From Candidatus Moraniibacteriota bacterium (GTDB lineage Bacteria > Patescibacteriota > Minisyncoccia > Moranbacterales > UBA2206): a DNA stretch of 64,000 nt. Below are positions 3,046 to 63,903 of this stretch, piece by piece. The notes beneath the pieces were generated by a model. It did no database searches. It was not told the origin of the DNA and saw nothing but the letters and a program-made list of their open reading frames with translations. The position numbers and the translations under genes were made by a program. Each line of letters begins with the position of its first letter. Positions within the stretch are counted from its first letter, which is position 1. The DNA lies in NCBI GenBank assembly GCA_963775955.1, contig CAVZKT010000002.1, forward strand, positions 292,944 to 356,943, read 5' to 3'.

Positions 3046-4158
3046 ATGAAAATTTATAATTTTATGAATCTAAAAAAGATCCAGGACGCGGATGTGGAAA
3101 ATAAAAAAGTTTTGTTGAGGATTGATTTTAATGTGGCATTGAAAAATCAAAACGCCAAGGAGAAATACAAAATATTTTCCAGCAAAGAAACGATAGATTA
3201 TATTTTATCCCAAAAGGGGGCGAAACTGGCCTTGGTGGGGCATCTCGGACGGCCGACAGCGCTCAAAAATTGCCTGATTTCCGGAGAAACATTGTCTCAT
3301 CGCGCGGCGGAGCAAATTGACCCGCAGTTTTCCTTAAAACAATTGGCCGACGATGTCGAGCGCATTTTGGAAATTAAAGTTAAATTTGTGCCGGATTGCG
3401 TCGGTGAAAAAGTGAAAGAATCCATTGAAAATCAAAAACCGGGCGAAGTCTTGCTCTTGGAGAATGTTCGCTTTTATTGCAACGATGAAAAAAATGATCC
3501 AGAATTTTCCGAAAGGCTGGCGGAAAATTTTGATATTTTTATCAACGACGCTTTTAGCGTCTGCCATAGGAATCAGGCATCAGTGACCGGACTGGCGAAA
3601 AATTTACCAAGCTACGCCGGTTTTTGGCTGCAAAAAGAAATTGAAAATCTGGACAAGGTGAAAAATAATCCGGAACATCCGGCGGTGGCGATCATCGGCG
3701 GAGCCAAAATTGAAACCAAGCTTCCTTTGATAAAAAAACTTGAGGACGAATACGACCATATTTTAGTGGGCGGCAAAATTGCCAATGAAGCGCTGGATCA
3801 GGGATTGAAATTTAGCGAAAAAGTGCTTTTCCCCGTTGACTTTTTAGGCGACCGGCTGGACATCGGACCAGAGACAATAGAAAAGTTTAAAAACATCATA
3901 TCCAGCGCCAAAACTATCGTGTGGAACGGCCCGATGGGAAAATTTGAGGAAAAGCCGTATGACATGGGAACAAATAAAATTCTTGAAGCCGTCGTGAGGA
4001 GTGGAGCTTTCATTTTAATGGGAGGCGGAGAATCAGTGGAAATCTTGGAAGGACAAAAGGCGATGGATAAAATTTCCTTCGTTTCCACCGGCGGCGGCGC
4101 CATGCTGGAATATTTAAGCGGCAACATCCTGCCGGGCATAGAAGCTCTAAAAACATGA
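3046..4158 (+). CDS. pgk: phosphoglycerate kinase
   Basis: LLRIDFNV, GHLGRP, LLENVRF, NDAFSVCHR, GGAKIETKL, WNGPMGKFE, STGGGAMLEYL. Confidence 0.95.
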   Translation: MKIYNFMNLKKIQDADVENKKVLLRIDFNVALKNQNAKEKYKIFSSKETIDYILSQKGAKLALVGHLGRPTALKNCLISGETLSHRAAEQIDPQFSLKQLADDVERILEIKVKFVPDCVGEKVKESIENQKPGEVLLLENVRFYCNDEKNDPEFSERLAENFDIFINDAFSVCHRNQASVTGLAKNLPSYAGFWLQKEIENLDKVKNNPEHPAVAIIGGAKIETKLPLIKKLEDEYDHILVGGKIANEALDQGLKFSEKVLFPVDFLGDRLDIGPETIEKFKNIISSAKTIVWNGPMGKFEEKPYDMGTNKILEAVVRSGAFILMGGGESVEILEGQKAMDKISFVSTGGGAMLEYLSGNILPGIEALKT

Positions 4159-4245: not shown

Positions 4246-5536
<1,291 letters not shown>

Positions 5537-5547
<11 letters not shown>

Positions 5548-7092
5548 AATTCCTACAATTTTAGTTATTCTGGATGGTTACGGCATTGCCCCGCCGGGAA
5601 AAGGCAACGCTGTCACTCTGGCCAAAACACCGGTTCTGGATCGGCTGTTTAAAATTTATCCTTCCACGACTTTATGCGCGACCGGAACTTGCGTAGGGCT
5701 TCCTGACCGCAAGATGAGCGGATCGGAAGCCGGGCATATGAATATCGGCGCCGGCAGGATTGTTCCTCAGGACTCAAAATACATATCAGACAGCATTAAA
5801 GATGGAAGTTTTTTTATGAATCCGGCGCTGGTGGGCGCGGTTGAACATGCTAAAACTTTTAATAGCGATTTTCACGTAATGGGGCTAATGGGTAATATGG
5901 ATAGTCCGCATAGCAATCCGGAGCATTTTCGCGCTATTCTGAAACTAGCCAAAAGCAATAACGTCAAAGAGGTTTACTGCCATTTGTTTACCGATGGCAG
6001 GGATTCGTATCCCAAAAGCGCTCTGGAGCACTTAAAATATTTCCGGCAAATTATGTCCGAAGAAGGAATTGGAAAAATCGCGACGCTTTCCGGCACGATT
6101 TTACGCCATGGATCGCGCCAAAAATTGGAAAAGGCTGACGCAGGCTTATGATGCAATGGTATTCGCCCGCGGCGAAAAAGCAGGTTCTGCCGAGGAGGCG
6201 ATTGAAAAAGCTTACAAAGACGATTTGACGGATGAGTATCTTCCGCCGACATTTATTGAGCAAGACGGAAAGCCTGTGGTGCAGATAAAAAAAGACGATG
6301 CAGTCATATTTTTTAATTGCCGATCCGACCGGGCGCGCCAATTCAGCAAACTCTTTATTGCAATCGATGAAAAAAGCATTTTGAGCGATGATATGCCAGT
6401 AATCGATAAAATAAAAAATTTATATTTCGTAACACTGACCGAATTCGGGCCGGGCCTCGATGAACACACGGCTTTTCCCGGGACATACTATTTCCGCGAC
6501 ATTGCCGATGGCAGCCGGAAAGTTGAAACAGCTTTATATCGCCGAATCGGAAAAATTCGCGCATGTCACCTACTTTTTAAACGGCGGTTATGCCGATCCG
6601 GTTGATGGCGAAGAAAGAATGATGATCAAATCTCCGGTCGTTGATTCTTACGCTAAAGCCCCGGAAATGTCGGCGCAAGAAATAACGGATGTGGTTGTGC
6701 GGAATATCCAAAATGATGTCTATGATTTTATAACCATCAATTATGCCAACGCGGATATGGTAGGGCACACCGGCGATTTGCCGGCCACAATCAAAGCCGT
6801 GGAAACATTGGACAGGCAAATAGAAATTTTAGAAAAAATTATTTCAGAAAAGGGCGGAAATCTGATTATAACGGCCGATCATGGCAACGCGGACGATATG
6901 GTGGATTTTGAATCCGATCAGCCAAACACATTCCATACCAAAAACCCAGTGCCGTTTCTGCTGGTGGGCGAGAAATTCAAGGATAAAAAATTACGCGACA
7001 AGGGGGTTCTGGGCAACATCGCGCCGACGATACTTGATATAATGGGAATAGAAAAGCCAAAGGCGATGAAGGGAAAATCATTATTGAGCTAA
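5537..7092 (+). pseudogene. gpmI: 2,3-bisphosphoglycerate-independent phosphoglycerate mutase with two +1 frameshifts
   Basis: ORFs 5537..6151, 6069..6605 and 6460..7092 (frames 2,3,1) together give a full iPGM (ILDGYGIAP, RFYAMDRAKNW, AESEKFAHVTYFLNGG, ITADHGNAD); shifts near 6093 (ggc-a-cga) and 6478 (cccggga). Confidence 0.85.
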
Positions 7093-12700: not shown

Positions 12701-12835
12701 ACCCTGTTAAATAAATTTTGCTTTGGCAAAATTAAGATTTGAAAAAAATAGGGGAATTAAAAGATGAATTGTAACTATTAATAAAAATAAGTTGTTTCTA
12801 TAAAAAGTATAGACTCAAATCTTATTTAACAGGGT
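12701..12835 (+). repeat. palindromic GTTAAAT-class element (ACCCTGTTAAATAA ... TTATTTAACAGGGT)
   Basis: 14-bp perfect terminal inverted repeat at 12701-12714 / 12822-12835; inner hairpins AATTTTGCtttgGCAAAATT and TCTATAaaaagTATAGA; ends 2 nt before the ATG at 12838. Confidence 0.7.
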
Positions 12836-22035: not shown

Positions 22036-22138
22036 CCCTGTTAGAGATTTTTCTGACCTGACTGGGTTAAAATAAAATTATTAATAAATTTTCGGGTATT
22101 ATTTTTAAAATAATAAACTTGTAAAATCTCTAACAGGG
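22036..22138 (+). mobile_element. 103-bp palindromic MITE-like element (CCCTGTTAGAGATTTT ... AAAATCTCTAACAGGG) splitting the porB start codon
   Basis: 16-bp perfect TIR; 4-bp direct repeat TGAA at 22032-22035 and 22139-22142; old ATG at 22031 overlaps the porA stop (ATGA); new GTG at 22138. Confidence 0.75.
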
Positions 22139-27787: not shown

Positions 27788-27993
27788 TGGGGAGTAGCCA
27801 AGCGGCCCCGCACCAAAGCGAAGTTTGGTGTGGGGTAAATAAGGCACGAGGTGGCGCCTGTCCCGCCTAAAGTTCCGAGATCGTCTAACGGTAGGACGGC
27901 AGGTTCTGGTCCTGCTAATCTTGGTTCGAATCCAAGTCTCGGAACTTTATGCGGGAGTCCATGCATGCGGGGGTTCGAATCCCTCCTCCCCAA
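27788..27993 (+). ncRNA. split tRNA-Gln-like gene (outer) hosting tRNA-Gln(CUG)
   Basis: 5' TGGGGAG-TA-GCC-AAGCGG and 3' GGGGG-TTCGAAT-CCCTC-CTCCCCA-A; acceptor 7/7 with U1-A72; 12-bp hairpin CCCCGCACCAAA/TTTGGTGTGGGG in the D-loop; no canonical anticodon arm found. Confidence 0.5.
27874..27944 (+). tRNA. tRNA-Gln (anticodon CUG)
   Basis: Manual cloverleaf: TCCGAGA/TCTCGGA acceptor (U1-A72), D-arm GTCT..GGAC, anticodon arm GCAGG-TTCTGGT-CCTGC, T-arm CTTGG-TTCGAAT-CCAAG. Confidence 0.85.
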
Positions 27994-29718: not shown

Positions 29719-29801
29719 CACCCCTGTTAAATATTTCGAAACGGAATTTCACCCCTGTTAAATAGGTTCCACTCCGTGGAAATTTAACGGGGTTAACGGG
29801 G
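29719..29801 (+). repeat. compound GTTAAAT-class hairpin element (two left ends, two right ends)
   Basis: CACCCCTGTTAAATA at 29719 and 29750; ATTTAACGGGG at 29782-29792 and TTAACGGGG at 29793-29801; ends 9 nt before the ATG at 29811. Confidence 0.65.
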
Positions 29802-29810
29802 CAAGAAAAA

Positions 29811-30008
29811 ATGGAAAAAAATCTGGCACTGCCGCTCATTTTAGCTGTGATCTGGACAATTCCCTGGAAGGGTGCGGCGCTTTGGAAAGCGGCCCGCAGG
29901 GGACAAAAAGTGTGGTTTATATTAATGCTCGTTTTAAATACGCTGGCAATTTTGGAAATACTTTACATTTTTATTTTCTCAAAAAGAGACGACGGACAAC
30001 GGGGATAA
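29811..30008 (+). CDS. small two-TM membrane protein (DUF5652-like)
   Basis: 65 aa; WKGAALWKAARRGQKVWFILMLVLNTLAILEILYIF. Confidence 0.6.
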   Translation: MEKNLALPLILAVIWTIPWKGAALWKAARRGQKVWFILMLVLNTLAILEILYIFIFSKRDDGQRG

Positions 30009-33029: not shown

Positions 33030-34054
33030 AATTATAAAATTGTTATCGGATCCACATCAATAATCCAGCCGTTTGGCAAGGATTTCAATATTTCTTTAAA
33101 ATTTTCGGGGATATTCCCTGTTATTTTCAGAAGGATTTGCTTTCGGAAGCGGCCTCTTATTTTTGAAATAAAAGCATCCTGGGGTTCTGACAGCGTTATA
33201 TTTTTTATGGCAGTTTCCTTTAAGAGTTTGTAAATTCTTTTTGTTTCAATATCTGTTTTTTTAAGGTTGAAATTCTGAAAAATCAGTTTAATTAATTTTC
33301 CAAACGGCGGGAGGCAGAGGTTTTTTCTTTCTTCAATTTCTTTCGCGTAAAATTCTTCCAGATTTTTTTCCGCAACTAATTTGAAAAATTTTTGTTCCGG
33401 CGCAAAAGTTTGAATAAGAACAATCCCTGGAAATTTGGCGCCTGGGCGGCTCGTTCTTCCGGCAACCTGTAAAATTAGCTGAAAAGCCCGTTCGGCAGTT
33501 GAAAAGTCTGGCAAAGACAGCATATTGTCTCCATCTATAATACCAATGAGCGCCAAGCTTGGCAAATCCCAGCCTTTGGAAATCATCTGGGTGCCAATTA
33601 AAATATCAATCTCTTGATTCATAAATTTCCGGTATAAGTTTTCCTGCGCATCTTTGCCTTGCATGGACTGGCTGTCGGCGCGGGCAAGTTCTGGCTTCCG
33701 GAAACAAGCCGGCAATTTCTCTTTCAATTTTTTGAGTTCCAAGGCCGATATTTTGGAAACTAATGCCTTTGCAATTCGGGCACTGCGGAGTGATGGATGT
33801 TTTGTAGGTGCAATGAACGCAACGATAAATTCCGGAGTTTTCATAAACCAGCGCGCGGTCGCAGCGCGGGCATTTTAAAACTGTCTTGCAATCGGCGCAA
33901 ACGGAAAAAGCGCTCATTCCCTGGCGGTTTACGAATAAGATCGTCTGCAGTTTATTTTTGAGCGCGTAGGCGATTTCCGACTGCAGTTTTTTACTAATTG
34001 TGGAATAGTTTCTGAATCCAGCGTTCTTTTTTCATATCAACCAACTCAATAATA

Positions 34055-34088
34055 GAATTTGAAATTTGAAATTTGAAATTTGAAATTT
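34055..34088 (-). repeat. tandem heptanucleotide repeat (plus strand GAAATTT x4 plus a degenerate unit) in frame in priA
   Basis: gaattt gaaattt gaaattt gaaattt gaaattt; translated ..SNFKFQISNS.. Confidence 0.9.
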
Positions 34089-34605
34089 GTTTGGAGTTTG
34101 TTATTTGCTGATTTAATTCAGGTAATTTTAAAAGTTGATATTTATTTTTTTGGGCATTATAATAAGCATTCAATGCTTGGCGTGGCTGACCCGCGTATAA
34201 TTTTGGCCTTGTGGATTTCAGCCAGTTTTTCCGCCACTTTCCGCGCGTCATAACGCGGATTCATATCCCATTGTTTGAAAGAGGCATCCTGCTCTTCGTC
34301 AATAACTATCAGTTTAAGATTCTGAAAAGGCGCGAAAACAGCCATGCGGGTACCGATGATTATTTTTGCCTCGCCGGATTTTATCTTTCGCCAGTTTTCG
34401 CAAAGCTCGCCTTTGGATATTTTACTGTGGATTACTGCAATTTCTTCCGGCTTAAAATGCGCGCCGTATCTTTCAATTGCCTGCGGGGTCAATGTCAATT
34501 CTGGCAGAAGTATTAAAAACTGTGCGTCCTTGTTTTTTTCTTTCAGTTTTTTGATCGCGTGTATATAAACCTCAGTTTTGCCGGATCCGGAAGGACCATA
34601 AAGCA

Positions 34606-34640
34606 GAAATTTTGAATTTTGAATTTTGAATTTTAAATTT
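34606..34640 (-). repeat. tandem heptanucleotide repeat (plus strand GAATTTT x3 plus degenerate flanks) in frame in priA
   Basis: gaaatttt gaatttt gaatttt gaatttt aaattt; encodes LKFKIQNSKF immediately before the Walker A. Confidence 0.9.
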
Positions 34641-35169
34641 ATTTTTTTTGCAATTATATCAACTGCACTAGTTTGTTCTTTAGTTAGTTTGATATTTTTT
34701 GTGTTTTGTTTGTGAATATTTGTGTTTTGTATTTTGTGTTTTTGTTTAACTCTCTTTGGAAGAAAGGATTTTAGGACAACTCCAAGAGGGGAGAGATAGT
34801 AATCTGAAATAAATTGGGCGAGTTCCAGTTGCTTTTTGTCTAAAAAATTTTCTTCCAAAACTTTTTCTATTTTTTTAAGCTGGATATTTCCAAAACGGCG
34901 GAAATCATTTCTATTGTCCAGCACTATGCCCTCAACATTTCTTTTAAAAAGGGGAATGGAAACCAGTGTTCCCGGAGAAAGTTTTTGGTCATGCAAATAC
35001 GAAAACGACTGGCTTCCGGAAAGAGGAAGGCGGGTTATGGGGGCGACATTGATGATAATTTTTGAGAGAAATTTTCGCATGGCTTTAGTTTAACAAAGTT
35101 TTGCCATACATAACAGGGATTACTTTTCACCGCCTTGAAAATATGCCAAAAATGGGCTAATCTAGGGAT

Positions 35170-36486: not shown

Positions 36487-36620
36487 CCCGGTAGTGAAAT
36501 TTCGACTGACTTTTCTAAAAAGTCCAAAAGCATAGCGTCATTTATTTTAGTAAATATTTAAATATTAATTAAATTTCTACGTATGTAAATTATTACAAAT
36601 GTCGAAATTCTACTACCGGG
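36487..36620 (+). mobile_element. 134-bp palindromic MITE-like element (CCCGGTAGTGAAATTTCGAC ... GTCGAAATTCTACTACCGGG) splitting a start codon
   Basis: 20-bp TIR (18/20); 4-bp direct repeat TATG at 36483-36486 and 36621-36624; ATG present on both sides. Confidence 0.7.
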
Positions 36621-47386: not shown

Positions 47387-48670
47387 TTACCCTTGATTTT
47401 TAGAAGAAATTTCCTGTTGGATAACTTCCAGCGCTTTGTCCAGCTGCGGGTCGCGGTTGTTGTCAAAATCTTCCTGGGTTAAATCCACTTCAATATTGGG
47501 AGTTATGCCCTCATCCATTATGTAGTCGCCATTAGGCGTCATCCATTTGTCCACAGTGATTTTTACGCTGGAATTTCCCGGCAAATCAATAAGTTCCTGG
47601 ACAGAGCCTTTGCCGAATGATTTCTTGCCGATGAGCTGGACGGCGCGGTTGTCCCGCAGGGCTCCGGCCAAAATTTCCGAGGCGCTGGCGCTTCCCTCAT
47701 TAATCAGGACTACCACCGGCAAAGAGCTAAGCCTGTCCCCGCCCGATGTATATAAGTTGTCTTTTTTGCCGGTGTTGTCTTCCTCGCTGACAACCAGCTC
47801 GCCCTTGGGGATCATCCGACTGGCTACGCTTACGGCCTTATCCAAAAATCCGCCCGGATTGTTGCGCAAATCTAAAACAATTCCTTTGGCGCTTTGGGAA
47901 ATTATTTGATTTGCAGCTGCGTCAAACTCCTTGGCAGTATCGTCGCCGAATTTGGTTATTTTCAGATAGGCGATGCCATCAGGCTTGAATTCCAGCTCCA
48001 CGCTTTTTATGGAAATAGTGTCACGGACAATGGAAATTTCCCTGACTCCATCCTCGCCCAGGCGCAAAACTGTCAATTTAACCTCTGTTCCTTTTTTTCC
48101 GCGGATCAGATCCACTGCTTCATCAATGGTGGTGTCAGCGGTTGTTTTGTCGCCGACTTTGAGGATTTTATCGCCGGCCCGCAAACCCGCTTTGGCGGCC
48201 GGAGAATCGGCCAGCGGAGCAATTACGGTCAAGATATTATCTTTGATTCCCAGTTCGGCGCCAATTCCTTCAAAGCTGCCTTCCAAATCTTGGGAAAAAG
48301 ATTTTGTTTCCGCCGGATCAAAAAAAGTTGAATACGGGTCATTGGTGGCGCGCAGCATTCCTCTGATGGCGCCATAAACCAATTTTTGGGCGTCCAGGGA
48401 ATTTTTATCCACATATTTTTCTTTTAGCAGATCCCAAACTTTCCAGAAAAGCGAAAAATCAACCGAATTTTGCGGAGAATTTTTATTGGTAATTTGCGTT
48501 TGAGCGAGCGGGAAGGACCGATTATCAGCGGGGGAATTTTTTCCTCTGGAATAACCCAGCCAAAAACTCCCGACTAAGAGAAAAACAAAAAAGAAAATAA
48601 ACAAATACTTATGCAGTAATTTGCGATTATTATCCAAAGACCGTGTCTGTTTTAGAGTTTCTTCGTCCAC
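47387..48670 (-). CDS. ctpA: S41 C-terminal processing peptidase (PDZ-containing)
   Basis: PDZ (AGLRAGDKILKVG) plus S41 core (GSASASEI..GKKSFGKGSVQ); start taken as GTG 48670-48668, regenerated by the element insertion (the track TTG start at 48688 lies inside the element). Confidence 0.85.
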   Translation of the reverse strand: MDEETLKQTRSLDNNRKLLHKYLFIFFFVFLLVGSFWLGYSRGKNSPADNRSFPLAQTQITNKNSPQNSVDFSLFWKVWDLLKEKYVDKNSLDAQKLVYGAIRGMLRATNDPYSTFFDPAETKSFSQDLEGSFEGIGAELGIKDNILTVIAPLADSPAAKAGLRAGDKILKVGDKTTADTTIDEAVDLIRGKKGTEVKLTVLRLGEDGVREISIVRDTISIKSVELEFKPDGIAYLKITKFGDDTAKEFDAAANQIISQSAKGIVLDLRNNPGGFLDKAVSVASRMIPKGELVVSEEDNTGKKDNLYTSGGDRLSSLPVVVLINEGSASASEILAGALRDNRAVQLIGKKSFGKGSVQELIDLPGNSSVKITVDKWMTPNGDYIMDEGITPNIEVDLTQEDFDNNRDPQLDKALEVIQQEISSKNQG

Positions 48671-48769
48671 CCCGTTAGAGTTTTCCAAAATTACAGGAAA
48701 TAATATTGGAATTGTAAAAAAATAATTAAGCGTAATCCCGTTTCAAATTTAATAAAAACTCTAACGGGG
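48670..48769 (-). mobile_element. 100-bp palindromic MITE-like element (CCCCGTTAGAGTTTT ... AAAACTCTAACGGGG) splitting the ctpA start codon
   Basis: 15-bp perfect TIR; 4-bp direct repeat (minus strand TGGA; plus strand TCCA at 48666-48669 and 48770-48773); old ATG at 48774-48772 directly follows the upstream TAG. Confidence 0.75.
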
Positions 48770-50878: not shown

Positions 50879-50989
50879 CCCCGTTAGAAGTTTTGGAAAG
50901 TTCTTTTTAATATCTAAAATATAAAGGTGAAGCCGCTTCGCTTAAATGCTTTTCTTAGGCATTATCTTTAAAATGAACTTCTAACGGGG
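50879..50989 (-). mobile_element. 111-bp palindromic MITE-like element (CCCCGTTAGAAGTT ... AACTTCTAACGGGG)
   Basis: 14-bp perfect TIR; 4-bp direct repeat (minus strand TTGA; plus strand TCAA at 50875-50878 and 50990-50993); one copy supplies the TGA stop of the GT4 gene, the other the -35 TTGACA. Confidence 0.7.
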
Positions 50990-52141
50990 TCAACTAAGAG
51001 AGTTAAAAATACAAATCACACCCCAGGCCGCTTTTTCCCAGGAAAATTTTTGCGCTTGCGATTGTCCCTTTTGTGCCAAAATCCCGCCTAAATTAGGATT
51101 GTCAAATATTTTCTGGATTTTACCGGCCAGATTCTCGGGGCTTTTTGGCTCGAAAAAAAGCGCGCTTTCACCGGCTATTTCCCGGTGCGGAGGAATATCC
51201 GAAGCAATAACCGGCGTGCCGGCCGCCATGGCTTCCAGAATCGGAATGCCGAAGCCTTCATAGAGCGAGGGAAAACAAAAAACACGCGCCCCCTTCATAA
51301 CGGCGGCCTTGTCATTCTCATCGATGAACCCCGGAAAAAAAACATTATTTTTCAAATTAAGTTTGGAAACAGTTTCGTCAATGCGCGGGTCAAAATTATG
51401 TCCCCGGCCGCCGGCAATGACAAGTTTCGCGTCAATTTTATGTTTTATTTTTGCGTAAGCTTCAATAAGGATTGGAATATTTTTTCTGGGCTGGAGCGTG
51501 CCGACGTATAAAATATATTCGTCCGGCAAAGCATATTTCTTTTTTACCGAGAGAATTTTTTCCGGCGAAACATCCTGGCGCAGAAAATCTTCTGAAACAG
51601 CGTTGTGGATCCAGGCGACTTTATCTCGGCTTGCCGGATAATATTTTTTTAATTCCTCAGCGGTAAACCGGGAAACCCCAATAATTTTATCCGCTCTTTT
51701 GAGAGACATCGGAATTAAAATTTTCAGGAAAAACAAGTCAGAAAACTTAATAAACTGCGAATAGACTTTAAAAGAAATATCGTGGATAATCGTTGCTATT
51801 TTTATGCTTTTTGGCACAAAAAACGGCGTGATATATTGAGTGAGGTATATATCCGCCGGATTTTTTCTTAAATATCGTGGCAACGTCCAAATATTCCATC
51901 CGAATTTGTTCCGCAGCAGCCTGGCCGCCGCAAGCGGAATAATTTCAAAATTGATTTTATTTTCAATTTTTAATTTTACTGCAATACTCTGTAGTATTGC
52001 AGTATCTGCTGTGTCGGTGAATAATAAATATTTATTTCGACTGTCGATTTTGGCGAGATTTTTAACCAAATTAAAAAACACCGCCTCATCACCGGTTCTC
52101 TTTTTTCCGATTAATCGAATGTCAATGCCGATTTTTACCAC
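50990..52141 (-). CDS. GT4-family glycosyltransferase
   Basis: C-terminal EGFGIPILEAMAAGTPVIAS motif; 383 aa. Confidence 0.8.
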   Translation of the reverse strand: MVKIGIDIRLIGKKRTGDEAVFFNLVKNLAKIDSRNKYLLFTDTADTAILQSIAVKLKIENKINFEIIPLAAARLLRNKFGWNIWTLPRYLRKNPADIYLTQYITPFFVPKSIKIATIIHDISFKVYSQFIKFSDLFFLKILIPMSLKRADKIIGVSRFTAEELKKYYPASRDKVAWIHNAVSEDFLRQDVSPEKILSVKKKYALPDEYILYVGTLQPRKNIPILIEAYAKIKHKIDAKLVIAGGRGHNFDPRIDETVSKLNLKNNVFFPGFIDENDKAAVMKGARVFCFPSLYEGFGIPILEAMAAGTPVIASDIPPHREIAGESALFFEPKSPENLAGKIQKIFDNPNLGGILAQKGQSQAQKFSWEKAAWGVICIFNSLS

Positions 52142-59015: not shown

Positions 59016-60957
59016 ATGCTTGAATTTATATATAACCAAATATTGTTTTATATCTCACTGGCCATAGTATTGTTTTTGCCCGGTTATTTTTTGTTGCTGG
59101 CTATTTTCGGCAAAAGCGGAAAACTTTCAAGCCTGGAAAAGTTTGTTTTGTCTTTCGGGCTAAGTATAATAATCACAGACATCCTGCTTATTTTTCTGAA
59201 TAAGTTTGGCATAATCATTAATAGAATTTCCCTGCTGGCGTCTCTAGGACTGTTTTTTCTTATTTGTTATTTAATTTACTATTTGCGTCGGAAAAAATAT
59301 GAGGTTGAAGAAACTGAATCAAGGCATAGCGGATATTCACGATTTCAGATATTGGCGATTGTTCTGATTATTCTTACTAGTATTTTTTTCCGCACCGCGC
59401 ATCTGGCGAAAAATATAACACCGAGCGCGACCGATCTGGGGCACCATATGTTCTGGGTGGAAAAGATCATCCAAACCGGAAAAATTTCCGACTTTCAAAA
59501 AGTTGACATTATTCAAAACGATGGGCATTACAGCATCAGCGAACCGGTGAAGATTGATGATTTTATCATTGGTGAGCATTTAATTTTTGCCGCGGTCGGA
59601 CTGATTTCCGGGGCAAGCGTTATCTCCACATTCCCGGTTATTGTTTTGTTTTTGATAAACATCATAGGTCTCCTGGCCGTCTTTATCCTGGCCAAAGTTT
59701 TTTTTAATTATCTTCCTTATGGAAAAACTATTCCAATACTTTCAATTTTATTCTTGGGCGTCCTTTACGCCCTTTCGGCTCCCCAGGCGAATTACATAAG
59801 CGGCGGGGTAATCGGAAACTTGATTGGAAATCTTTTTGCGCCAATGGCGTTCTATCTGCTATTCCGCGCTATCAAAGAAAATAACCCGCCATTTTTCGCA
59901 CTTGGCCTCTTGACTATTTTTGGCCTGGCTTATACCCATCACTTGAGCGCTTTTATTTTCGGCTTCGCGCTTGCTTTTTCTTTGCTTTTTCTGGCAGCGA
60001 TAAAAAGAAAAGAAATAATCGGAGAATTAAAAGAAAATATCCTCGCTTATTTTTTCGGCTCCAGTCGTTTCAATTCTGCTTTTTTGCGGACTGTTTTTCT
60101 TTTTTATCCACATGCCGGCTTATATAGAAAACCAGGCCGTCAAAAGCGTAATTGGCGATCCGTCAAGGACAACCAAAGAAGGACTGGCTTTCAGCCAGTT
60201 GCAATCCGTGGCCGGCGAGAGCCGCCTAATTCTGGGAATTGTCGGCATTGTTTTGCTGTTAGCCGGCGCTAAAAAATATCCTTATCAGAGCGCGATAATT
60301 TCCGGCTGGTTTTTTTCCATTTTTATTCTGTCGTGGAAGCCAACCCTTTTTCATATTGACATCCCCTCTTCCCGGATCGGAAATTATTTGATTTTTCCGG
60401 CGGTTCTGGCCGGCGCTTTTGCTGTCAGCTGGTTTTTTGCGAAATATATTTATGATCATCAAGCGGGCAAGATATATTTAGGCAAAAAATTATTTCTGAC
60501 TGTTGTGGCCCTTGTCTTTTTATATGTGCTAACCAGCGGACTTTTTGATGCTAATCAGTCGCTCGGAACCCCGCCATCCGGCAAAAAAGCCGTAGAAACA
60601 TTCGCGCTTTCGCGCTATCTGTCCGAGCGGATAAATTCCAAAGACGTGATTCTCAAGGATCATAACTATGTCCCGGCTGATTCCTGGATGAAAGTGTTTT
60701 TTTTGCGCGATTACAATTTCCCTTTTACCCGCGGACTTTTTTTCCGCTATTCCGGATCACAGAAGCGGGAAATGTGCACGCTTTGGATGATTTCGACGCC
60801 CAACTCGCCGGACGCTAAAAAGTGCTTTGCCGAAACCGGCGTGGATTTTATCGTCGTCAATCCTAATTATGACAGCGCCCAATTCAAAGATACAAAGAGG
60901 TTTTGGAGGGTTTACGCTTCGGACGCGGTGGATGCCTATTATTATCCCAATAATTAA
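59016..60957 (+). pseudogene. polytopic membrane protein, putative ArnT/PMT-like glycosyltransferase, one +1 frameshift
   Basis: ORFs 59016..60272 and 60112..60957 overlap in adjacent frames; more than 10 TM helices plus a C-terminal soluble domain. Confidence 0.45.
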
Positions 60958-60967
60958 ATTTTATGAA

Positions 60968-61070
60968 CCCCGTTAGAGTTTTTACAAAGCTGACTGGGTA
61001 AAATAAATAAGTAATATATTTTTCAAGTTTTATTATTTAAAGTAATAAGCTTGTAAAAACTCTAACGGGG
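60968..61070 (+). mobile_element. 103-bp palindromic MITE-like element (CCCCGTTAGAGTTTTTACAA ... TTGTAAAAACTCTAACGGGG) splitting a start codon
   Basis: 20-bp perfect TIR; 4-bp direct repeat TGAA at 60964-60967 and 61071-61074; shares the internal CTGACTGGGT(T)AAAATAAA with the porB copy. Confidence 0.75.
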
Positions 61071-61432
61071 TGAACAGCAATAAAACAATAGTCATTTTTA
61101 CGGTTATTTTTTTTCTGGCTAGCGCTTTGTTTCTGGCCTATACTGAAAATCGGCAATCAAACGAAAATCTGCAAAAAGATTGGTGGGTTTTATCCTTTAA
61201 TGATCCTAAAAGCGAAGATTTGAAATTTACCGTTGAAAATCATAGCAATGAAAACAATTTCCATTGGGAAATTTTAGTTGGCAAAAAAAAGACGCAGGAA
61301 GGTGATATAAAAATATTAAAAGGCTCCTCTTGGACATCCAATGTCCAATTAGATAACTTATCGGGAAAAATCATCATCAGAGTTTCCAGCGGATCAGACA
61401 AAAAAGAGATATATAAGAGTTTTAACAAATAG
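61070..61432 (+). CDS. membrane-anchored hypothetical protein
   Basis: 120-aa ORF; GTG start regenerated by the element; N-terminal TM helix. Confidence 0.55.
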   Translation: MNSNKTIVIFTVIFFLASALFLAYTENRQSNENLQKDWWVLSFNDPKSEDLKFTVENHSNENNFHWEILVGKKKTQEGDIKILKGSSWTSNVQLDNLSGKIIIRVSSGSDKKEIYKSFNK

Positions 61433-61447
61433 CTTAAATAAGCCACG

Positions 61448-62590
61448 ATGAATGAGCTAAAAACCGAAGGAAATGTAAAAAAGAAGATTTTACTGGTCAC
61501 CCGCCCCATTGCTCCGCCGTGGGATGAGGCTTCCAAAAACTTCGCTTATAACTTGGCGATGAATCTGCCGGACTTTGAATTCGGTCTGCTTACAAACGGA
61601 ATTTTGCGAAATTTGCCGAAAAATATTATTCAACATCCGATTTATACTTCCAATAAGAACAATTTTATTCAAAAGCTGGGACTAATTATAAATCTGAGAA
61701 AAATAAGCCGCCAGTTTGAAATAGTCCACTGTTTGTTTACGCCGGCTAAAGTCAATTCTTTTTTGTTAAATAACTTGTTAAGCAATAAAAAATCGAAAAC
61801 TATTCAAACCATTGCCACTCTTCGCGAAGATTTGTATTCTGATAATGAATTAAGAAAACTGGTGTTTGCCGATAAAATTGTTACTTATTCAAAATATGCC
61901 AAAGAAAAATTAAATAATCTCGGCCTGAATAATATTGAGCAAATTTATCCGGGAATTGATCTGGCTTATTACTCTCCTGCTCCCAAAGATGCGGAACTGC
62001 TCAGAAAGTATGAATTAAAAATCACGGACTTTATCGTTACTTTTCCTGGCGAATACACCCGCTTGGGCGCAGCTGATGATATTGCCAACATGATTTTGAA
62101 GTATTTAGATGTATTTAAACAAAACAGCATCAAGTTTATTCTGGCCTGCCGGCTGAAAAATACCGGAGATATTCTGAAAAAAGAAGAAATAATGGAAAAA
62201 ATAAAAAACAAGGGAATTTCTGACATAGTTGTTTTTATTAATACTTTTTCGGATATGGCCAAGCTTTATAATCTAAGCGACGCGATTATTTTTCCGGTGC
62301 GCGAGATGTATGGAAAATTTGATGTGCCGTTGGCCGCCATTGAACCGATGGCCTGCGAAAAACCGGTCATTATTTCCAATCTGCCGATACTTTCGGAATT
62401 CGCAAGGCCGGAACATTCTGTTATCATTGAAAAAGGCAATATTGAACAGTTGAAAAACGCGATTTTAGATTTACATGATAATCCTGATAAGAGAGCGGCC
62501 ATTGGAAAAAATGCCAGAAAATTTGCGGCCGAAAATTTTGACATAAAAAAGGCGGCTCAAAATTATAGGGAAATTTACAATGGATTATAA
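61448..62590 (+). CDS. GT4-family glycosyltransferase
   Basis: 380-aa ORF; GT-B fold features; ..AAIEPMACEKPVII.. Confidence 0.7.
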   Translation: MNELKTEGNVKKKILLVTRPIAPPWDEASKNFAYNLAMNLPDFEFGLLTNGILRNLPKNIIQHPIYTSNKNNFIQKLGLIINLRKISRQFEIVHCLFTPAKVNSFLLNNLLSNKKSKTIQTIATLREDLYSDNELRKLVFADKIVTYSKYAKEKLNNLGLNNIEQIYPGIDLAYYSPAPKDAELLRKYELKITDFIVTFPGEYTRLGAADDIANMILKYLDVFKQNSIKFILACRLKNTGDILKKEEIMEKIKNKGISDIVVFINTFSDMAKLYNLSDAIIFPVREMYGKFDVPLAAIEPMACEKPVIISNLPILSEFARPEHSVIIEKGNIEQLKNAILDLHDNPDKRAAIGKNARKFAAENFDIKKAAQNYREIYNGL

Positions 62591-63903
62591 CTTTGAAAAT
62601 TTATCTCCATTCAGAAAAGAAATAAAAACCGGAATTATGAAAGTGCCGGCAATTTTATTTTCCTCTGAAAATACCTTGTTGCGCGGAGAAACATTGAAAC
62701 AAATTGAAAAAATAGCCGAAAACCAAAAACTTTTCCATCACATCGCCGTTTTGAGCGACGCGCATCCAAAGCCGAATATCATCAATCCCACCGGGTCGGT
62801 AATTGCTTCGGAAAAAGATATTATTCCGGAAGCCATTGACGCTGCTCCCAACTGCGGCATGCGCGTAATTTTAACAGATCTTTCCGGGCAGGAGCTGACA
62901 AAAGAAAAAATATCGAAACTATTTACCGACCTCCGCTTGGCTATTCCTTCTAAAAAACTCATAGGCGCTCGCATATCTTTCCAAAAAGTATTGGAAATAT
63001 TCAGAAATGGAAGCTTGGCGCTGAAAGATACCTTCAATTTCCGCACCGTGAATGAAATTGAAAATACTTACAAAAATGGCAATTTTTTCGGAGCTGACAA
63101 TTTGCCGTTGGAAAAAGACATTTTGGATTCACTGCCTAAATCAATTATTCGCATCGGCAAATACCGTCTGGGGCTTCTGGGCGCGACTAAAAGCCATTTT
63201 CTTTGTTTGATGCGCGTCGCTTTAATCAAGGACGACCAAATGGCAAAAATGCTTGGCATCAAGCAGGGGCAATATGTTTTTTTTATGCATACGGGTTCCA
63301 GTATTGTCGGACGCTATGCCGCTTCACTTTTTACTTCGCGCAAGATAAAAAGTTTGTCGCAAAGAATAATTCTGTCAGTGTTAAAATTGACAACGTCAAA
63401 AGTTAAGCCGAATAATCTCGAAGCCGTTTTTCGCGCCGTCAGCAATTATGGTTTTGCCAACCGGACGCTTATAACGCACAAACTTGATAAGGCTCTGGAA
63501 AAAGTTTTTGGGCGCCAGGATAATCTAGAACTTCTCTATGATGCTCCGCATGTTTATTTTGACCGGGAAAACCACTTTGAAAAGGAAGTTGTTGATCCAT
63601 CGAAACGGCGCGAACCGCGCCTATGGGCCGCAAAAAATGAGCGGGCATGGCGTATTTCAAAAAACCGGCGAGCCGGTGCTGATTGCGCCTTTTGCCGGCG
63701 GATTCGGCTATATCGGTGTGGGCACGGATGAGAACACGGAAACTTTTTTTTCCGCCAACCATGAAGTTGGAAAAATTAAAGATTTAGATATTCAGCCTGG
63801 CCAATATGAAAGTTATGCGGCCGGTGTTATCAAAGAAATGGAGGAAAATAAAATTATCAAACTTGTCGCCAAATTAGAAACAATTAAAACGCTAACTTAC
63901 TAA
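62580..63903 (+). pseudogene. divergent RtcB-family RNA ligase homolog with one +1 frameshift near 63590
   Basis: AVLSDAHPKP, APNCGMRVI, FFMHTGSSIVG, NYGFANR, LLYDAPHVYFDRENH, then IHRNGANRA, GEPVLIAPFAGGFGY, SANHEVGK in the frame of ORF 63538..63903. Confidence 0.65.

Follow-up and report, generated by a model that had tools for sequence, protein, structure and literature searches.

Introduction

The Correia/NEMIS elements of Neisseria, together with ERIC and RUP, measure about 100-150 bp, have terminal inverted repeats and no coding capacity, and are present in multiple copies at gene boundaries, where they are co-transcribed as long hairpins able to alter expression. Rickettsia palindromic elements (RPEs), likewise palindromic and about 100-150 bp long, lie in or at the genes of reduced genomes without destroying them. 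The plant MITEs Tourist and Stowaway are defined by terminal repeats and duplication alone, their interiors being unrelated, and are moved in trans by a transposase whose requirements hardly go beyond the ends. Integron attC sites carry GTTRRR / YYYAAC boxes; their loop and length vary, their inner positions keep pairing rather than sequence, and they are recognised as folded single strands. Patescibacteria have tiny, tightly packed genomes that are thought to be poor in mobile elements.

Here we report copy D, a 103-bp element lying on a start codon in a 64-kb window (the whole stretch of DNA that was analysed). It belongs to a family that is a miniature transposon undescribed before. Taken as a whole, D is best explained, with high probability, as a non-autonomous cut-and-paste DNA transposon (MITE) that inserted recently. 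The family resembles the Correia/ERIC-type elements in its inverted repeats, its duplication, its abundance (7 copies in the window, about 1 per 9 kb) and its stable predicted hairpin. It differs from them in a duplication of 4 bp at T-N-N-A rather than TA, a repeat of only 13 bp, interiors that are unrelated between lineages, a range of about 11 phyla rather than one genus, the lack of any Rfam or sequence match, and a terminal G that rebuilds start codons. RPEs are translated in frame inside ORFs, whereas D is out of frame and full of stops. With Tourist and Stowaway the family shares the combination of common termini and duplication with unrelated interiors, but these are eukaryotic, have TA or TAA duplications and are not known to target start, stop or -35 signals.

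Results and discussion

An insertion that rebuilds the start codon it interrupts

The features of copy D and its surroundings are as follows.

60968..61070, no strand: copy D of the MITE family, 103 bp
60964..60967: TGAA, left copy of the target-site duplication, present as a single TGAA in the empty sites of relatives
61071..61074: TGAA, right copy of the target-site duplication
60968..60987, + strand: left terminal inverted repeat, 20 nt paired in D
60968-60980: family-defining part of the left repeat, CCCCGTTAGA plus the triplet GTT
61051..61070, + strand: right terminal inverted repeat, whose last G is base 1 of the rebuilt start codon
61058-61070: family-defining part of the right repeat, AAC plus TCTAACGGGG
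60963..61001, + strand: orphaned original ATG (60963-60965) and uORF of 12 codons, MNPVRVFTKLTG followed by a stop, crossing the left arm
61070..61432, + strand: 120-aa gene 3' of D, with a GTG start made of the terminal G of D and the TG of the duplication

An earlier note on this DNA had described a 103-bp insert with a TGAA duplication, a uORF at 60963-61001 and a restart of the gene at GTG 61070, and all of these were found exactly there. D entered the TGAA of an ATGAAC at the beginning of a gene for a small membrane protein (120 aa, no Pfam match), and the 4-bp duplication left the orphaned ATG with the upstream TGAA copy. Because the terminal G of D and the downstream TG together make GTG, the reading frame and the N-terminus are preserved; orthologues of the gene in relatives begin ATGAAC(A/G)..., that is, MN(S/N). 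Judging from this conservation, the downstream gene is probably expressed from the rebuilt GTG. Inside D, a search for a Shine-Dalgarno site or a promoter able to drive the gene gave promoter-like matches on the minus strand only (3, versus a shuffle mean of 1.3 with SD 1.0, in AT-rich DNA).

The arms of D are 100% complementary over 20 nt (CCCCGTTAGAGTTTTTACAA / TTGTAAAAACTCTAACGGGG), or 21 nt when the flanking A/T is included. The predicted folding of the hairpin has z = -5.4 as RNA and z = -8.3 as DNA, and none of 200 shuffles was equally stable.

Empty and occupied sites in related lineages

At the orthologous site, D is absent from L124, L125/L126, L129/L130, L131 and L132, and present in L127/L128. 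The unoccupied sites, where the two genes are 5-12 nt apart, read ATGAAC in L124, L125/L126 and L132 and ATGAAT in L131; L129/L130 read ATGCGG and have no TGAA. Since the empty sites hold a single TGAA, the TGAA repeat is a target-site duplication. These sites are equally consistent with never having been occupied and with seamless excision. The earlier note did not recognise a transposon; what it called the TGAA duplication is the target-site duplication.

The window and L127/L128, which are not sister lineages, both read ATGAA[103 bp]TGAAC. The element is identical between them at 103/103 positions on the same start codon, whereas the flanks are only 73-76% identical in coding DNA (p about 5e-13 at 0.76 per site). 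D in the two lineages could in principle be a single ancient insertion, kept as a conserved cis-regulatory element and precisely excised elsewhere. Site, duplication and orientation are indeed the same in both, seamless excision could occur if the chemistry were piggyBac-like, and a scan of the whole metagenome collection with a lineage-specific D-type pattern hit a single contig and gave no other D-type copy. We nevertheless consider this very improbable. Besides the identity of D against its diverged flanks, the interiors of the family are otherwise unrelated (97/127 copies), and at least three independent precise losses would be needed on the tree. A truly ancestral mini copy at the same loci, on the start codon of the GT4 gene, predates the L125/L127 split, and its divergence is close to that of its flanks. 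Which tetranucleotide is duplicated, and in which orientation, was lineage-specific in 14/14 comparisons.

Further copies in the window

The window holds the following other copies and related elements.

22036..22138, no strand: copy A, 103 bp with duplicated TGAA, of one lineage with D and oriented like it; site at the ATGA overlap of the porA stop and the porB start, with the PorB N-terminus MNKKLTEKLAPGH restored by GTG 22138
48670..48769, no strand: copy B, 100 bp, TCCA duplication (TGGA on the minus strand); site at the start codon (TAG|ATGGA) of an S41 peptidase gene on the minus strand
50879..50989, no strand: copy C, 111 bp, TCAA duplication (TTGA on the minus strand); the duplication holds the TGA stop of a GT4 gene (50990-52141) and at the same time supplies the initial TTGA of a TTGACA-N17-TAAAAT promoter for a LytR_cpsA_psr gene
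12702..12834, no strand: copy F, variant subfamily with CCCTGTTAAATAA in both arms, positions 4 and 9 mirrored; ends 3 nt 5' of ATG 12838, with differing flanks TTCA / TAAA
29722..29792, no strand: copy G, same GTTAAA variant as F, in the 5' leader of an ORF starting at 29812; a further left arm is nested in it at 29753, and a further right arm reaches about 29801
36487..36620, no strand: element E, arms CCCGGTAGTGAAATTTCGAC, duplicated TATG; site on a DUF5671 gene's start codon

Family-like arm pairs number 6 in the window versus 0-1 per shuffle in 20 shuffles. Copies A and D are sister copies at two start codons, as had been proposed: both are 103 bp long with a TGAA duplication, they are about 78% identical overall, and they share the blocks CTGACTGGGT, AAAATAAA and AATAARCTTGTAAAA. 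The interior of copy B is unrelated to those of A and D. The restored porB start agrees with every PorB homologue, all of which begin MNKKLTEKLAPGH. By its coordinates, the P0007 relative has an empty site here, with a 4-nt overlap between porA and porB. Element E, differing in sequence and similarly built, is possibly a distant relative of the MITE family.

A family of short elements in about 11 phyla

A genome pattern scan found the termini CCCCGTTAGA...TCTAACGGGG in at least 119 stretches from about 11 phyla (about 17 expected by chance). The matches listed include Patescibacteria, Omnitrophota, Planctomycetota, Desulfobacterota and Nitrospirota, as well as Cloacimonadota, Elusimicrobia, Clostridia, Gammaproteobacteria and others, the phyla being mostly uncultivated. 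The presence of the family in Omnitrophota, Planctomycetota, Desulfobacterota, Nitrospirota and others besides Patescibacteria implies that the family is passed horizontally between uncultivated bacteria of the subsurface.

A perfect 4-bp T..A duplication flanks 89/125 copies among the matches listed, against 1 in 16 by chance (p = 2e-77); TAAA, TGAA and TTGA are the commonest duplications there, and TTAA is found in 0/89 of the perfect ones. The family is thus defined by a 13-bp terminal inverted repeat, made of CCCCGTTAGA and three free but matched bases, by a 4-bp staggered target cut at T-N-N-A, and by a short, essentially arbitrary interior. Copies are 88-118 bp and mini copies 29-64 bp long, and the sole ORF is the short uORF that the terminus forces. 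Terminal inverted repeats, a duplication of fixed length, presence/absence polymorphism, and small size and multiple copies without a transposase gene are the characters of a MITE. A literature search with the terminus sequence returned unrelated primers only, and nothing of relevance came up on CPR-bacterial MITEs or on duplications of the T-N-N-A type.

The inner positions of the terminal repeats are matched as pairs

Positions 11-13 take 22 different triplets, yet they are matched between the arms in 78/125 copies among the matches listed (9.7 expected). Among the same matches, the two arms agree in 95%, 84% and 72% of cases at positions 11, 12 and 13, and in about 27-30% from position 14 onward. 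Every one of the four Watson-Crick types is seen at pairs 11, 12 and 13 across 121 distinct copies, with changes on both sides in 46, 29 and 52 cases respectively; pairs 14-17 are random. The check proposed in the earlier note, covariation over all collected copies, supports pairs 11-13 in these 121 copies, with a score of 0.219 versus 0.101 in shuffles, 0/500 of which reach 0.219. Outside these helix pairs the rest of the element has no conserved structure. The covariation of pairs 11-13 fits an RNA helix and a symmetry requirement at the DNA level equally well. The 22 matched triplets are a natural dataset for asking whether terminal repeats must match in sequence or need only pair.

The triplets GAT, GTT, AGT and TAA stand side by side in this one genome. 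Such variety within a single genome indicates that complementarity is maintained, and not one protein-binding sequence. An extra base had been read into both arms of the 50879-50989 copy (copy C); the difference is there, and is more simply the variable triplet, AGT versus GTT at positions 11-13. Positions 1-3 and 5-10 of each arm, like the flanking A/T, were required by the scan pattern, so that the search itself dictates their conservation among the 125 copies. Copies recovered without the pattern, namely the window copies and the mini copies of relatives, also conserve the outer 10 bp, whose conservation as sequence across many phyla means that sequence recognition is involved too. The proposal that pairing, rather than a protein-binding sequence alone, is what is conserved therefore holds for positions 11-13 and has to be qualified for the outer 10 bp.

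The mirrored differences between D and the porB copy, as first pointed out in the earlier note, are borne out: D differs from copy A at positions 4 (C vs T) and 12 (T vs A), each time in the left and right arms alike, with no unmirrored change in arm positions 1-16, and pairing is extended to 20 bp in D, unlike in A. Quasi-palindrome correction is an established mutational process, and templated correction between the arms, by template switching or by hairpin mismatch repair and with no selection involved, would produce just such double-sided changes and could also have lengthened the pairing of D. It seems to us an improbable source of the mirroring, because it does not predict the sharp family-wide limit at position 13, because loops of 60-90 nt are unfavourable for template switching, and because old copies gain unmirrored changes: the ancestral orthologous mini copies in L125 and L127 have C-A at position 4 and G-T at position 5.

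Another possibility is that the arms are kept complementary through host selection, as an RNA stem or an in-situ single-stranded DNA hairpin that controls the downstream gene, for example by keeping the GTG hidden until the stem is melted by translation from upstream, or by offering an RNase cleavage site. The very stable predicted hairpin of D takes in the first two bases of the GTG, and in a genome without Shine-Dalgarno sites local structure should dominate initiation. Among the matches listed, start-codon copies have fewer arm mismatches than other copies with perfect duplications (2/72 versus 40/284, p = 0.007), a difference explained equally well by their youth, since such copies would be purged fast. 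The ancestral mini copy kept at the GT4 start codon shows that initiation behind an element clearly works. However, copies upstream of -35 hexamers and at generic TAAA sites obey the 13-bp matching rule as well, and the ancestral mini copies carry the unmirrored changes just mentioned. Degraded duplications go with more arm mismatches; arms are perfect in 65% of copies with a perfect duplication versus 42% of those with an imperfect one (p = 0.027, among the matches listed). The five mismatches in start-codon copies are 3 A-C, 1 A-G and only 1 G-U, and the excess of G-U over A-C sought in arm mismatches was absent among these five informative cases. We therefore regard control by a host stem as unlikely. 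The pairing of the ends for which selection had been claimed is real and general, and a host RNA stem is not its best reading, given the copies at -35 hexamers and the unmirrored changes in the mini copies.

We think that pairing or symmetry of the arms serves mobility rather than a host RNA stem. The two ends would have to be symmetric, or to pair, over 13 bp when the element moves, and the outer 10 bp would be read as sequence by a transposase (none was found); the mirrored changes would then not be mainly the outcome of host selection for an RNA hairpin.

A structured class other than a transposon, whether an integron attC site, a REP/BIME, a small RNA gene or a riboswitch, is hardly credible as an alternative. 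The GTTAGA / TCTAAC boxes do fit the attC consensus GTTRRR / YYYAAC, and paired variable inner positions around a loop of variable length and sequence recall attC. Their order is reversed on either strand, with GTT 5' and AAC 3', and we rejected an attC identity for this reason. The family further differs from attC in its 4-bp duplication and empty sites and in copies that are dispersed and form no cassette arrays. The GTAG foot of REP is absent, and Rfam at the gathering threshold reported two tRNAs only in the whole window.

Insertion at stop codons, start codons and -35 boxes

Among the matches listed, one unambiguous ORF of at least 80 aa starts at G|TG in 24/125 copies; one copy beyond these 24 (L059) has a G|TG ORF on each side. 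TGAA sites read RTGAA in 21/21 cases, TTGA sites read TTGACA in 12/18, and a -10 hexamer lies 16-18 nt downstream of TTGA sites in 15/20, all among the matches listed. In the window, 3/3 TGRA-type copies are on start codons, and 22/219 non-coding TGRA sites are start codons. A Shine-Dalgarno-like motif precedes only 6/57 ORFs.

These targets suggest how the family might be tolerated. With a TGAA, TGGA or TAAA target the stop codon of the upstream gene would be retained, with a TTGA target the -35 hexamer of the downstream gene, and with an RTGAA target the downstream start codon. Insertions at such punctuation may be the ones least purged by selection in a genome that is about 88% coding and has no Shine-Dalgarno sites. 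That duplication and terminal base regenerate stops, starts and -35 boxes would account for the persistence of a transposon in so dense a genome. A selection filter alone does not obviously explain an identical element at the same 4 bp in two non-sister lineages, nor, in its simple form, the frequent exact TTGACA at TTGA sites, and an intrinsic target preference probably also plays a part. The identical copy at one start codon in two species, together with the lineage-specific duplication, points to an undescribed targeting rule.

Search for a transposase and comparison with piggyBac and IS1380

No autonomous partner with the same termini was found in the window or in about 0.9 Mb of loci. Among 40 window ORFs scanned with Pfam there was no transposase, integrase or recombinase, and the neighbours of solo arms in 25 loci were housekeeping genes, with no transposase among them. 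A tblastn search with the ISEcp1 transposase against the window and the roughly 0.9 Mb of loci (all but L133, the source of ISEcp1 itself) returned chance-level matches (E at least 0.27), and two scans over viral contigs gave no match. Two candidates were examined and set aside: a 254-aa ORF between porA and porB in L002 and L003, which has no terminal repeats and encodes a Lys/Glu-rich protein, and the inverted copy pair of L010, which flanks a gene for a 686-aa secreted protein.

The ends give a tentative lead to piggyBac, a eukaryotic superfamily, and to the related IS1380 family of prokaryotes, to which ISEcp1 belongs. The duplications of ISEcp1 are reported to be 5 bp, a point of difference. 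Its end, CCTAGATTCTACG, adjoins an IS1380-family transposase, and IS1380 transposases serve as the piggyBac outgroup. The piggyBac inverted repeat is 13 bp long and begins CCC (CCCTAGAAAGATA). The piggyBac duplication is 4 bp, usually TTAA and rarely TAAA, TCAA or TATG, and the 5' motifs are CCCTT, CCCTC and CCCAT (PMC10813416). The family repeat, CCCCGTTAGAnnn, is likewise 13 bp long, begins CC(C) and goes with a 4-bp T..A duplication, a likeness of resemblance only; unlike in piggyBac, none of the 89 perfect duplications among the matches listed is TTAA. Being short, the similarity of the ends could be coincidental. The lineage-specific duplications would fit a piggyBac-like carry-over of the 4-nt flank.

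A wider and rather doubtful proposal is that these are cross-phylum seamless mini-elements, moved by piggyBac/IS1380-like chemistry or by a recombinase with a 4-bp core, which carry the flank along, home to punctuation and act as a start-rebuilding module. If so, the lineage-specific duplication and orientation would follow from the element taking its flanking tetranucleotide along when it moves, and homing to RTGAA start codons, TTGACA -35 hexamers and stop codons would account for an identical copy having reached one start codon in two species that are not sisters. Together, the stem of 13 bp and the terminal G would make up a portable module that makes initiation depend on upstream translation in the absence of Shine-Dalgarno sites. 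Should the piggyBac/IS1380 link hold, the family would offer a prokaryotic model for seamless 4-bp transposition.

The uORF and the reading of start-codon copies

The uORF prefix MNPVR is forced, because ATGAA and the conserved terminus CCCCGTTAGA dictate its codons. Its length and stop position are not conserved, ranging from 5 to 39 codons in other copies, and we rejected a conserved peptide, the remainder beyond the forced prefix being variable. An in-frame reading like that of RPEs was also rejected: D and its duplication add 107 nt, out of frame and with many stops, and the lengths of start-codon copies show no in-frame preference modulo 3. Speculatively, the predicted stem may bury the GTG in the transcript, and translation of the upstream ORF or of the uORF through the left arm would open it. 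Read-through in frame occurs in only 1/26 start-codon copies (L048), where the ATG frame meets no stop in the element and runs on into the gene that follows, over 204 codons. Insertion sites of the family will lead gene callers to split genes or to give them wrong starts.

Structure of the copy at the small-gene start codon

The sequence from 60963 to 61074 reads ATGAA/CCCCGTTAGAGTTTTTACAA...TTGTAAAAACTCTAACGGGG/TGAAC and holds a 103-bp copy (D) whose 20-nt arms are perfectly complementary (21 nt if the flanking A/T is counted). An upstream ORF runs from ATG 60963 to TAA 60999-61001, and a 120-aa ORF begins at GTG 61070. All of these features, as well as the likeness to the copy at porB (A), were found as the earlier note had described them: A and D align at ~78% identity, including the blocks named there, and both arms change wherever one does within arm positions 1-16, with differences at positions 4 and 12 and no single-sided ones. 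The predicted RNA fold of D (-39.9 kcal/mol) is far stabler than those of shuffled sequences (z = -5.4), and its predicted DNA fold has a z of -8.3 against shuffles. Independent assemblies confirm D (L127/L128) and A (L001). Further copies were found by a tolerant search that returned 0-1 such pairs in shuffled sequence, and the interiors of two of them (B and C) bear no relation to that of A and D.

Family copies and a differently built hairpin element (E) in the window
60968-61070: D, 103 bp, TGAA on both sides
22036-22138: A, at porB, 103 bp, TGAA duplication
48670-48769: B, 100 bp, TCCA duplication
50879-50989: C, 111 bp, TCAA duplication
12702-12834: F, variant with GTTAAA in both arms
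29722-29792: G, nested, variant with GTTAAA in both arms
36487-36620: E, 134 bp, arms CCCGGTAGTGAAATTTCGAC, unlike the family arms, TATG duplication

Empty sites and an identical copy in another species

The D locus of relatives was collected via GT4 homologues. In L124, L125/L126, L129/L130, L131 and L132 the DUF1616 gene is separated from the small gene by 5-12 nt, and the five unoccupied sites read ATGAACAAC, ATGAACAGC, ATGAATAGC, ATGAACAGC and, in L129/L130, ATGCGG; the window and L127/L128 are occupied and read ATGAA(103 bp)TGAAC. D has thus inserted precisely and duplicated 4 bp of its target. At the A site, porA and porB overlap by 4 nt in a relative found by protein (P0007), and the junction holds an unrelated 254-aa ORF in L002 (9233-9997) and L003 (4592-5356), which is Lys/Glu-rich and had no Pfam match.

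A metagenome scan with the D/A-type left half gave one match, the orthologous locus in a different species (L123, the same as L128), and L127, an independent assembly, has the same sequence. The element is identical at 103/103 positions between the window and L128/L127, and the flanks of the window and L128 share 72-77% identity over 3.3 kb, with mismatches no more than 8-10 nt from the element on both sides. Quartet site patterns favoured grouping the window with L124 and L125 with L127 (260, with 86 and 79 for the other two groupings), and a seven-taxon NJ tree joined L125 and L127 with 100% bootstrap, followed by L132 at 92%, so that both occupied lineages adjoin empty ones. A copy inherited from a shared ancestor is the less simple reading: it would take several exact losses, and all 103 nt would have stayed unchanged (p ~5e-13). 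It is simpler to suppose that one circulating element has recently inserted twice, independently, into these 4 bp, and a T-N-N-A preference alone does not suffice to explain this choice of site.

A family spread across bacterial phyla

One genome per species was scanned with the pattern ACCCNGTTAGA-N(68-98)-TCTAACNGGGT, which matched at least 119 stretches against ~17 estimated by chance. Among the matches listed, hosts included many classes of Patescibacteria, Omnitrophota, Planctomycetota, Desulfobacterota, Nitrospirota, Cloacimonadota, Elusimicrobia, Edwardsbacteria, Stahlbacteria, Clostridia and Gammaproteobacteria; these listed matches yielded a set of 125 unique copies. The scan pattern specified the flanking A/T and all but one of the 10 outer positions, so the conservation of these positions and the T..A frame are conditioned by it; the window copies, found without this condition, agree with both. 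A perfect 4-bp duplication flanks 89/125 copies, where the inner two bases would match in 1/16 by chance, with the spectrum TAAA/TTTA (43), TGAA/TTCA (21), TTGA/TCAA (18), TAGA/TCTA (4) and TGGA/TCCA (3); TATA, TTAA, TACA, TCGA and TGCA do not occur among these 89. Interiors are unrelated in 97/127 copies, and copies of 29-64 bp and 141-204 bp also exist. Some element lineages cross phyla, as in Omnitrophota L014 and Thermodesulfovibrionia L064 (82% identical).

The other 36/125 copies lack a perfect duplication (e.g. L005, L009, L022, L036, L060, L063, L069, L073, L078 and L079). Often the left flank is TTTA or TTCA and the right flank TGAA or TAAA, the purine-type sequence reading outward on both sides as an inverted repeat. 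The Brocadia copies L022 and L063 are each centred in a longer host palindrome. The interiors of L014, L016, L017, L029, L094, L102, L115 and L118 (Desulfobacterota, Omnitrophota and Saccharibacteria) carry a GC-rich hairpin with a conserved loop (CATTAAA or CATTACA) and covarying stems. In L010, inverted repeats of ~330 bp (2046-2369 and 4832-5155) bracket a gene for a 686-aa secreted protein; each holds an identical 94-bp family copy, and a third identical copy (L039) is on a different contig of the same MAG.

Matching of the two arms

Position 4 and positions 11 onward were left free by the scan. At positions 11, 12 and 13, both arms carry the same base in 95%, 84% and 72% of copies, and from position 14 onward agreement is 27-30%. 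There are 22 different matched triplets at positions 11-13, and the triplets match in 78/125 copies, compared with 9.7 expected under random arm pairing. Double-sided changes at the three pairs number 46, 29 and 52. Covariation scores 0.219 in the real set; shuffles give 0.101 (0/500 reach 0.219) and slid controls 0.055-0.110. At position 4 the two arms read C/C in 112 copies, T/T in three, G/G in one and mixed in nine, and F and G have A at position 9 of both arms. The mirrored changes between A and D are therefore borne out and general to the family. The terminal repeat is 13 bp long: ten bases conserved in sequence, and three that need only to match. It is unlikely that one enzyme recognises the triplet by its sequence, since the window genome carries GAT, GTT, AGT and TAA side by side.

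Pairing in host RNA or for movement

The earlier note took the mirrored changes as selection for pairing. This holds in that the arms are kept matched, probably chiefly for propagation; a stem in host RNA is not favoured. One observation speaks for selection on arm pairing in situ, possibly with a translational role at start codons: among copies with perfect duplications, mismatches affect 2/72 free positions at start codons vs 40/284 elsewhere (p = 0.007), although the start-codon copies may be younger. Against it, the matching rule also applies to copies upstream of -35 boxes and at generic TAAA sites; the five mismatches in 24 start-codon copies (three A-C, one A-G, one G-U) show no wobble preference; and the free positions are perfect in 58/89 copies with perfect duplications but in 15/36 with imperfect ones (p = 0.027). 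Old insertions also argue against it. An ancestral mini copy that L125 and L127 share at the start codon of GT4 has unmirrored arm changes and is roughly as diverged as its flanks, and a paralogous one at the tmk start codon of L125 has another unmirrored change. Symmetry or pairing thus appears to be mainly a requirement of propagation.

Mini copies (61-64 bp) at GT4 and thymidylate kinase start codons
L125, 9959-10019
L125, 12446-12507
L127, 2194-2257

Behind these mini copies, the GT4 and thymidylate kinase genes begin at G/TGA, and the duplications of the GT4 site are degraded (TAAG and TGAT; TGAA and TGAG).

Placement on gene signals

A is inserted where the porA stop and the porB start overlap (ATGA), and GTG 22138 encodes the MNKKLTEKLAPGH-type PorB N-terminus that is conserved in 120/120 listed homologues, a few of which have short N-terminal extensions. 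The window comes from a Candidatus Moranbacteria (Patescibacteria) MAG, and the nearest named relatives are Moranbacteria or Parcubacteria. B lies at TAG/ATGGA of an S41 peptidase gene on the minus strand, and D on ATGAAC, with the upstream stop 5 nt before. In these three start-codon cases, the terminal G of the element and the TG of the duplication form GTG, from which the downstream gene would be expressed, judging from conservation. The duplication of C is TTGA on the minus strand, where it includes the TGA stop of a GT4 gene and opens a TTGACA-N17-TAAAAT promoter of the next gene. Shine-Dalgarno-like motifs within 20 nt upstream are scarce (6/57 window ORFs), so that insertion at a start parts no start codon from a ribosome-binding site. 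Window starts typically follow A/T-rich sequence, and many of the genes overlap their neighbours or abut on them.

Across the family, a purine precedes 21/21 TGAA sites (ATGAA or GTGAA), and an ORF of at least 80 aa starts from G/TG behind 16/21 TGAA and 2/3 TGGA sites. TTGACA is found at 12/18 TTGA sites, with a -10 hexamer 16-18 nt downstream in 15/20 TTGA flanks. TAAA sites are less specific, with a neighbouring gene's stop codon inside 6/43 and a Shine-Dalgarno-like motif after 11/43. Start codons make up 22/219 window TGRA sites outside coding interiors, and the TGRA copies lie on them in 3/3 cases (p ~0.001). The conservative explanation is a selection filter that lets an insertion survive only if it restores the signal; so strong a bias suggests a degree of targeting as well.

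In the ribosomal-protein operon of a Patescibacterium (L087), one copy lies between the S19 and L22 genes (3950-4050) and another before the S17 gene (6204-6314), whose ORF begins at G/TG.

Comparison with known elements

A MITE is the best formal class for the family, for which every MITE feature tested was found except an autonomous partner. Its ends and duplication resemble those of piggyBac (13-bp CCCTAGAAAGATA, 4-bp TTAA), and its ends those of the IS1380 family (ISEcp1 CCTAGATTCTACG); unlike in piggyBac, TTAA is absent among its duplications. No piggyBac/IS1380-type transposase was found in the window and loci searched, and the link is a lead rather than a membership. The scanned window ORFs had no transposase by Pfam; 13.2-27.6 kb was judged via the syntenic L002, whose called genes there had no transposase Pfam match. 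None of Correia, ERIC, RPE, REP and attC fits, each differing in one or more of its defining features. Among the papers listed by the literature searches, none paired 'miniature inverted-repeat' with Patescibacteria, CPR or Parcubacteria, and none had the terminus sequence in a relevant context.

With copies oriented by their interiors, 11 lineages had copies at non-homologous sites (flank identity ~0.5), and the duplicated tetranucleotide was the same, on the same strand, in 14/14 independent comparisons (p = 6e-5); A and D share TGAA and orientation. Two readings fit: the 4 nt may travel with the element, via 5' overhangs as in excised piggyBac or a recombination core, or orientation relative to transcription may be under selection.

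Other elements and genes

E lies downstream of a WecG/TagA gene, and its TATG duplication coincides exactly with the start codon of a DUF5671 gene and itself regenerates the ATG. The por operon of L003, a 90%-identical relative, carries other, unrelated inverted-repeat elements (2745-2981 and 3304-3410) exactly at the gamma/delta and delta/alpha subunit gene junctions, and junction-hopping hairpin elements thus seem a general feature of these genomes.

Gene calls were ORF-based. Enolase, iPGM, PriA, a DUF1616/DUF6541 protein and RtcB each fall into two ORFs (4273-5547, 5537-7092, 33032-35080, 59016-60957 and 62580-63900), and the gap in iPGM still looks coding when read in a different frame. 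Either the splits are genuine, as frameshifts or pseudogenes, or they come from indel errors, which the assembly may therefore contain.

A 20-nt inverted repeat (TCCCGCCTAAAGTTCCGAGA / TCTCGGAACTTTATGCGGGA) encloses a tRNA-Gln(CTG) gene (27874-27945) in the region 27861-27985, in which no tmRNA was called by ARAGORN or by Rfam at gathering score. The sequence 3' of the tRNA weakly matches a tmRNA 3' end (T-arm and acceptor; RF00023, 8.8 bits, E 0.15), and the region may be a divergent tmRNA with a nested tRNA gene.
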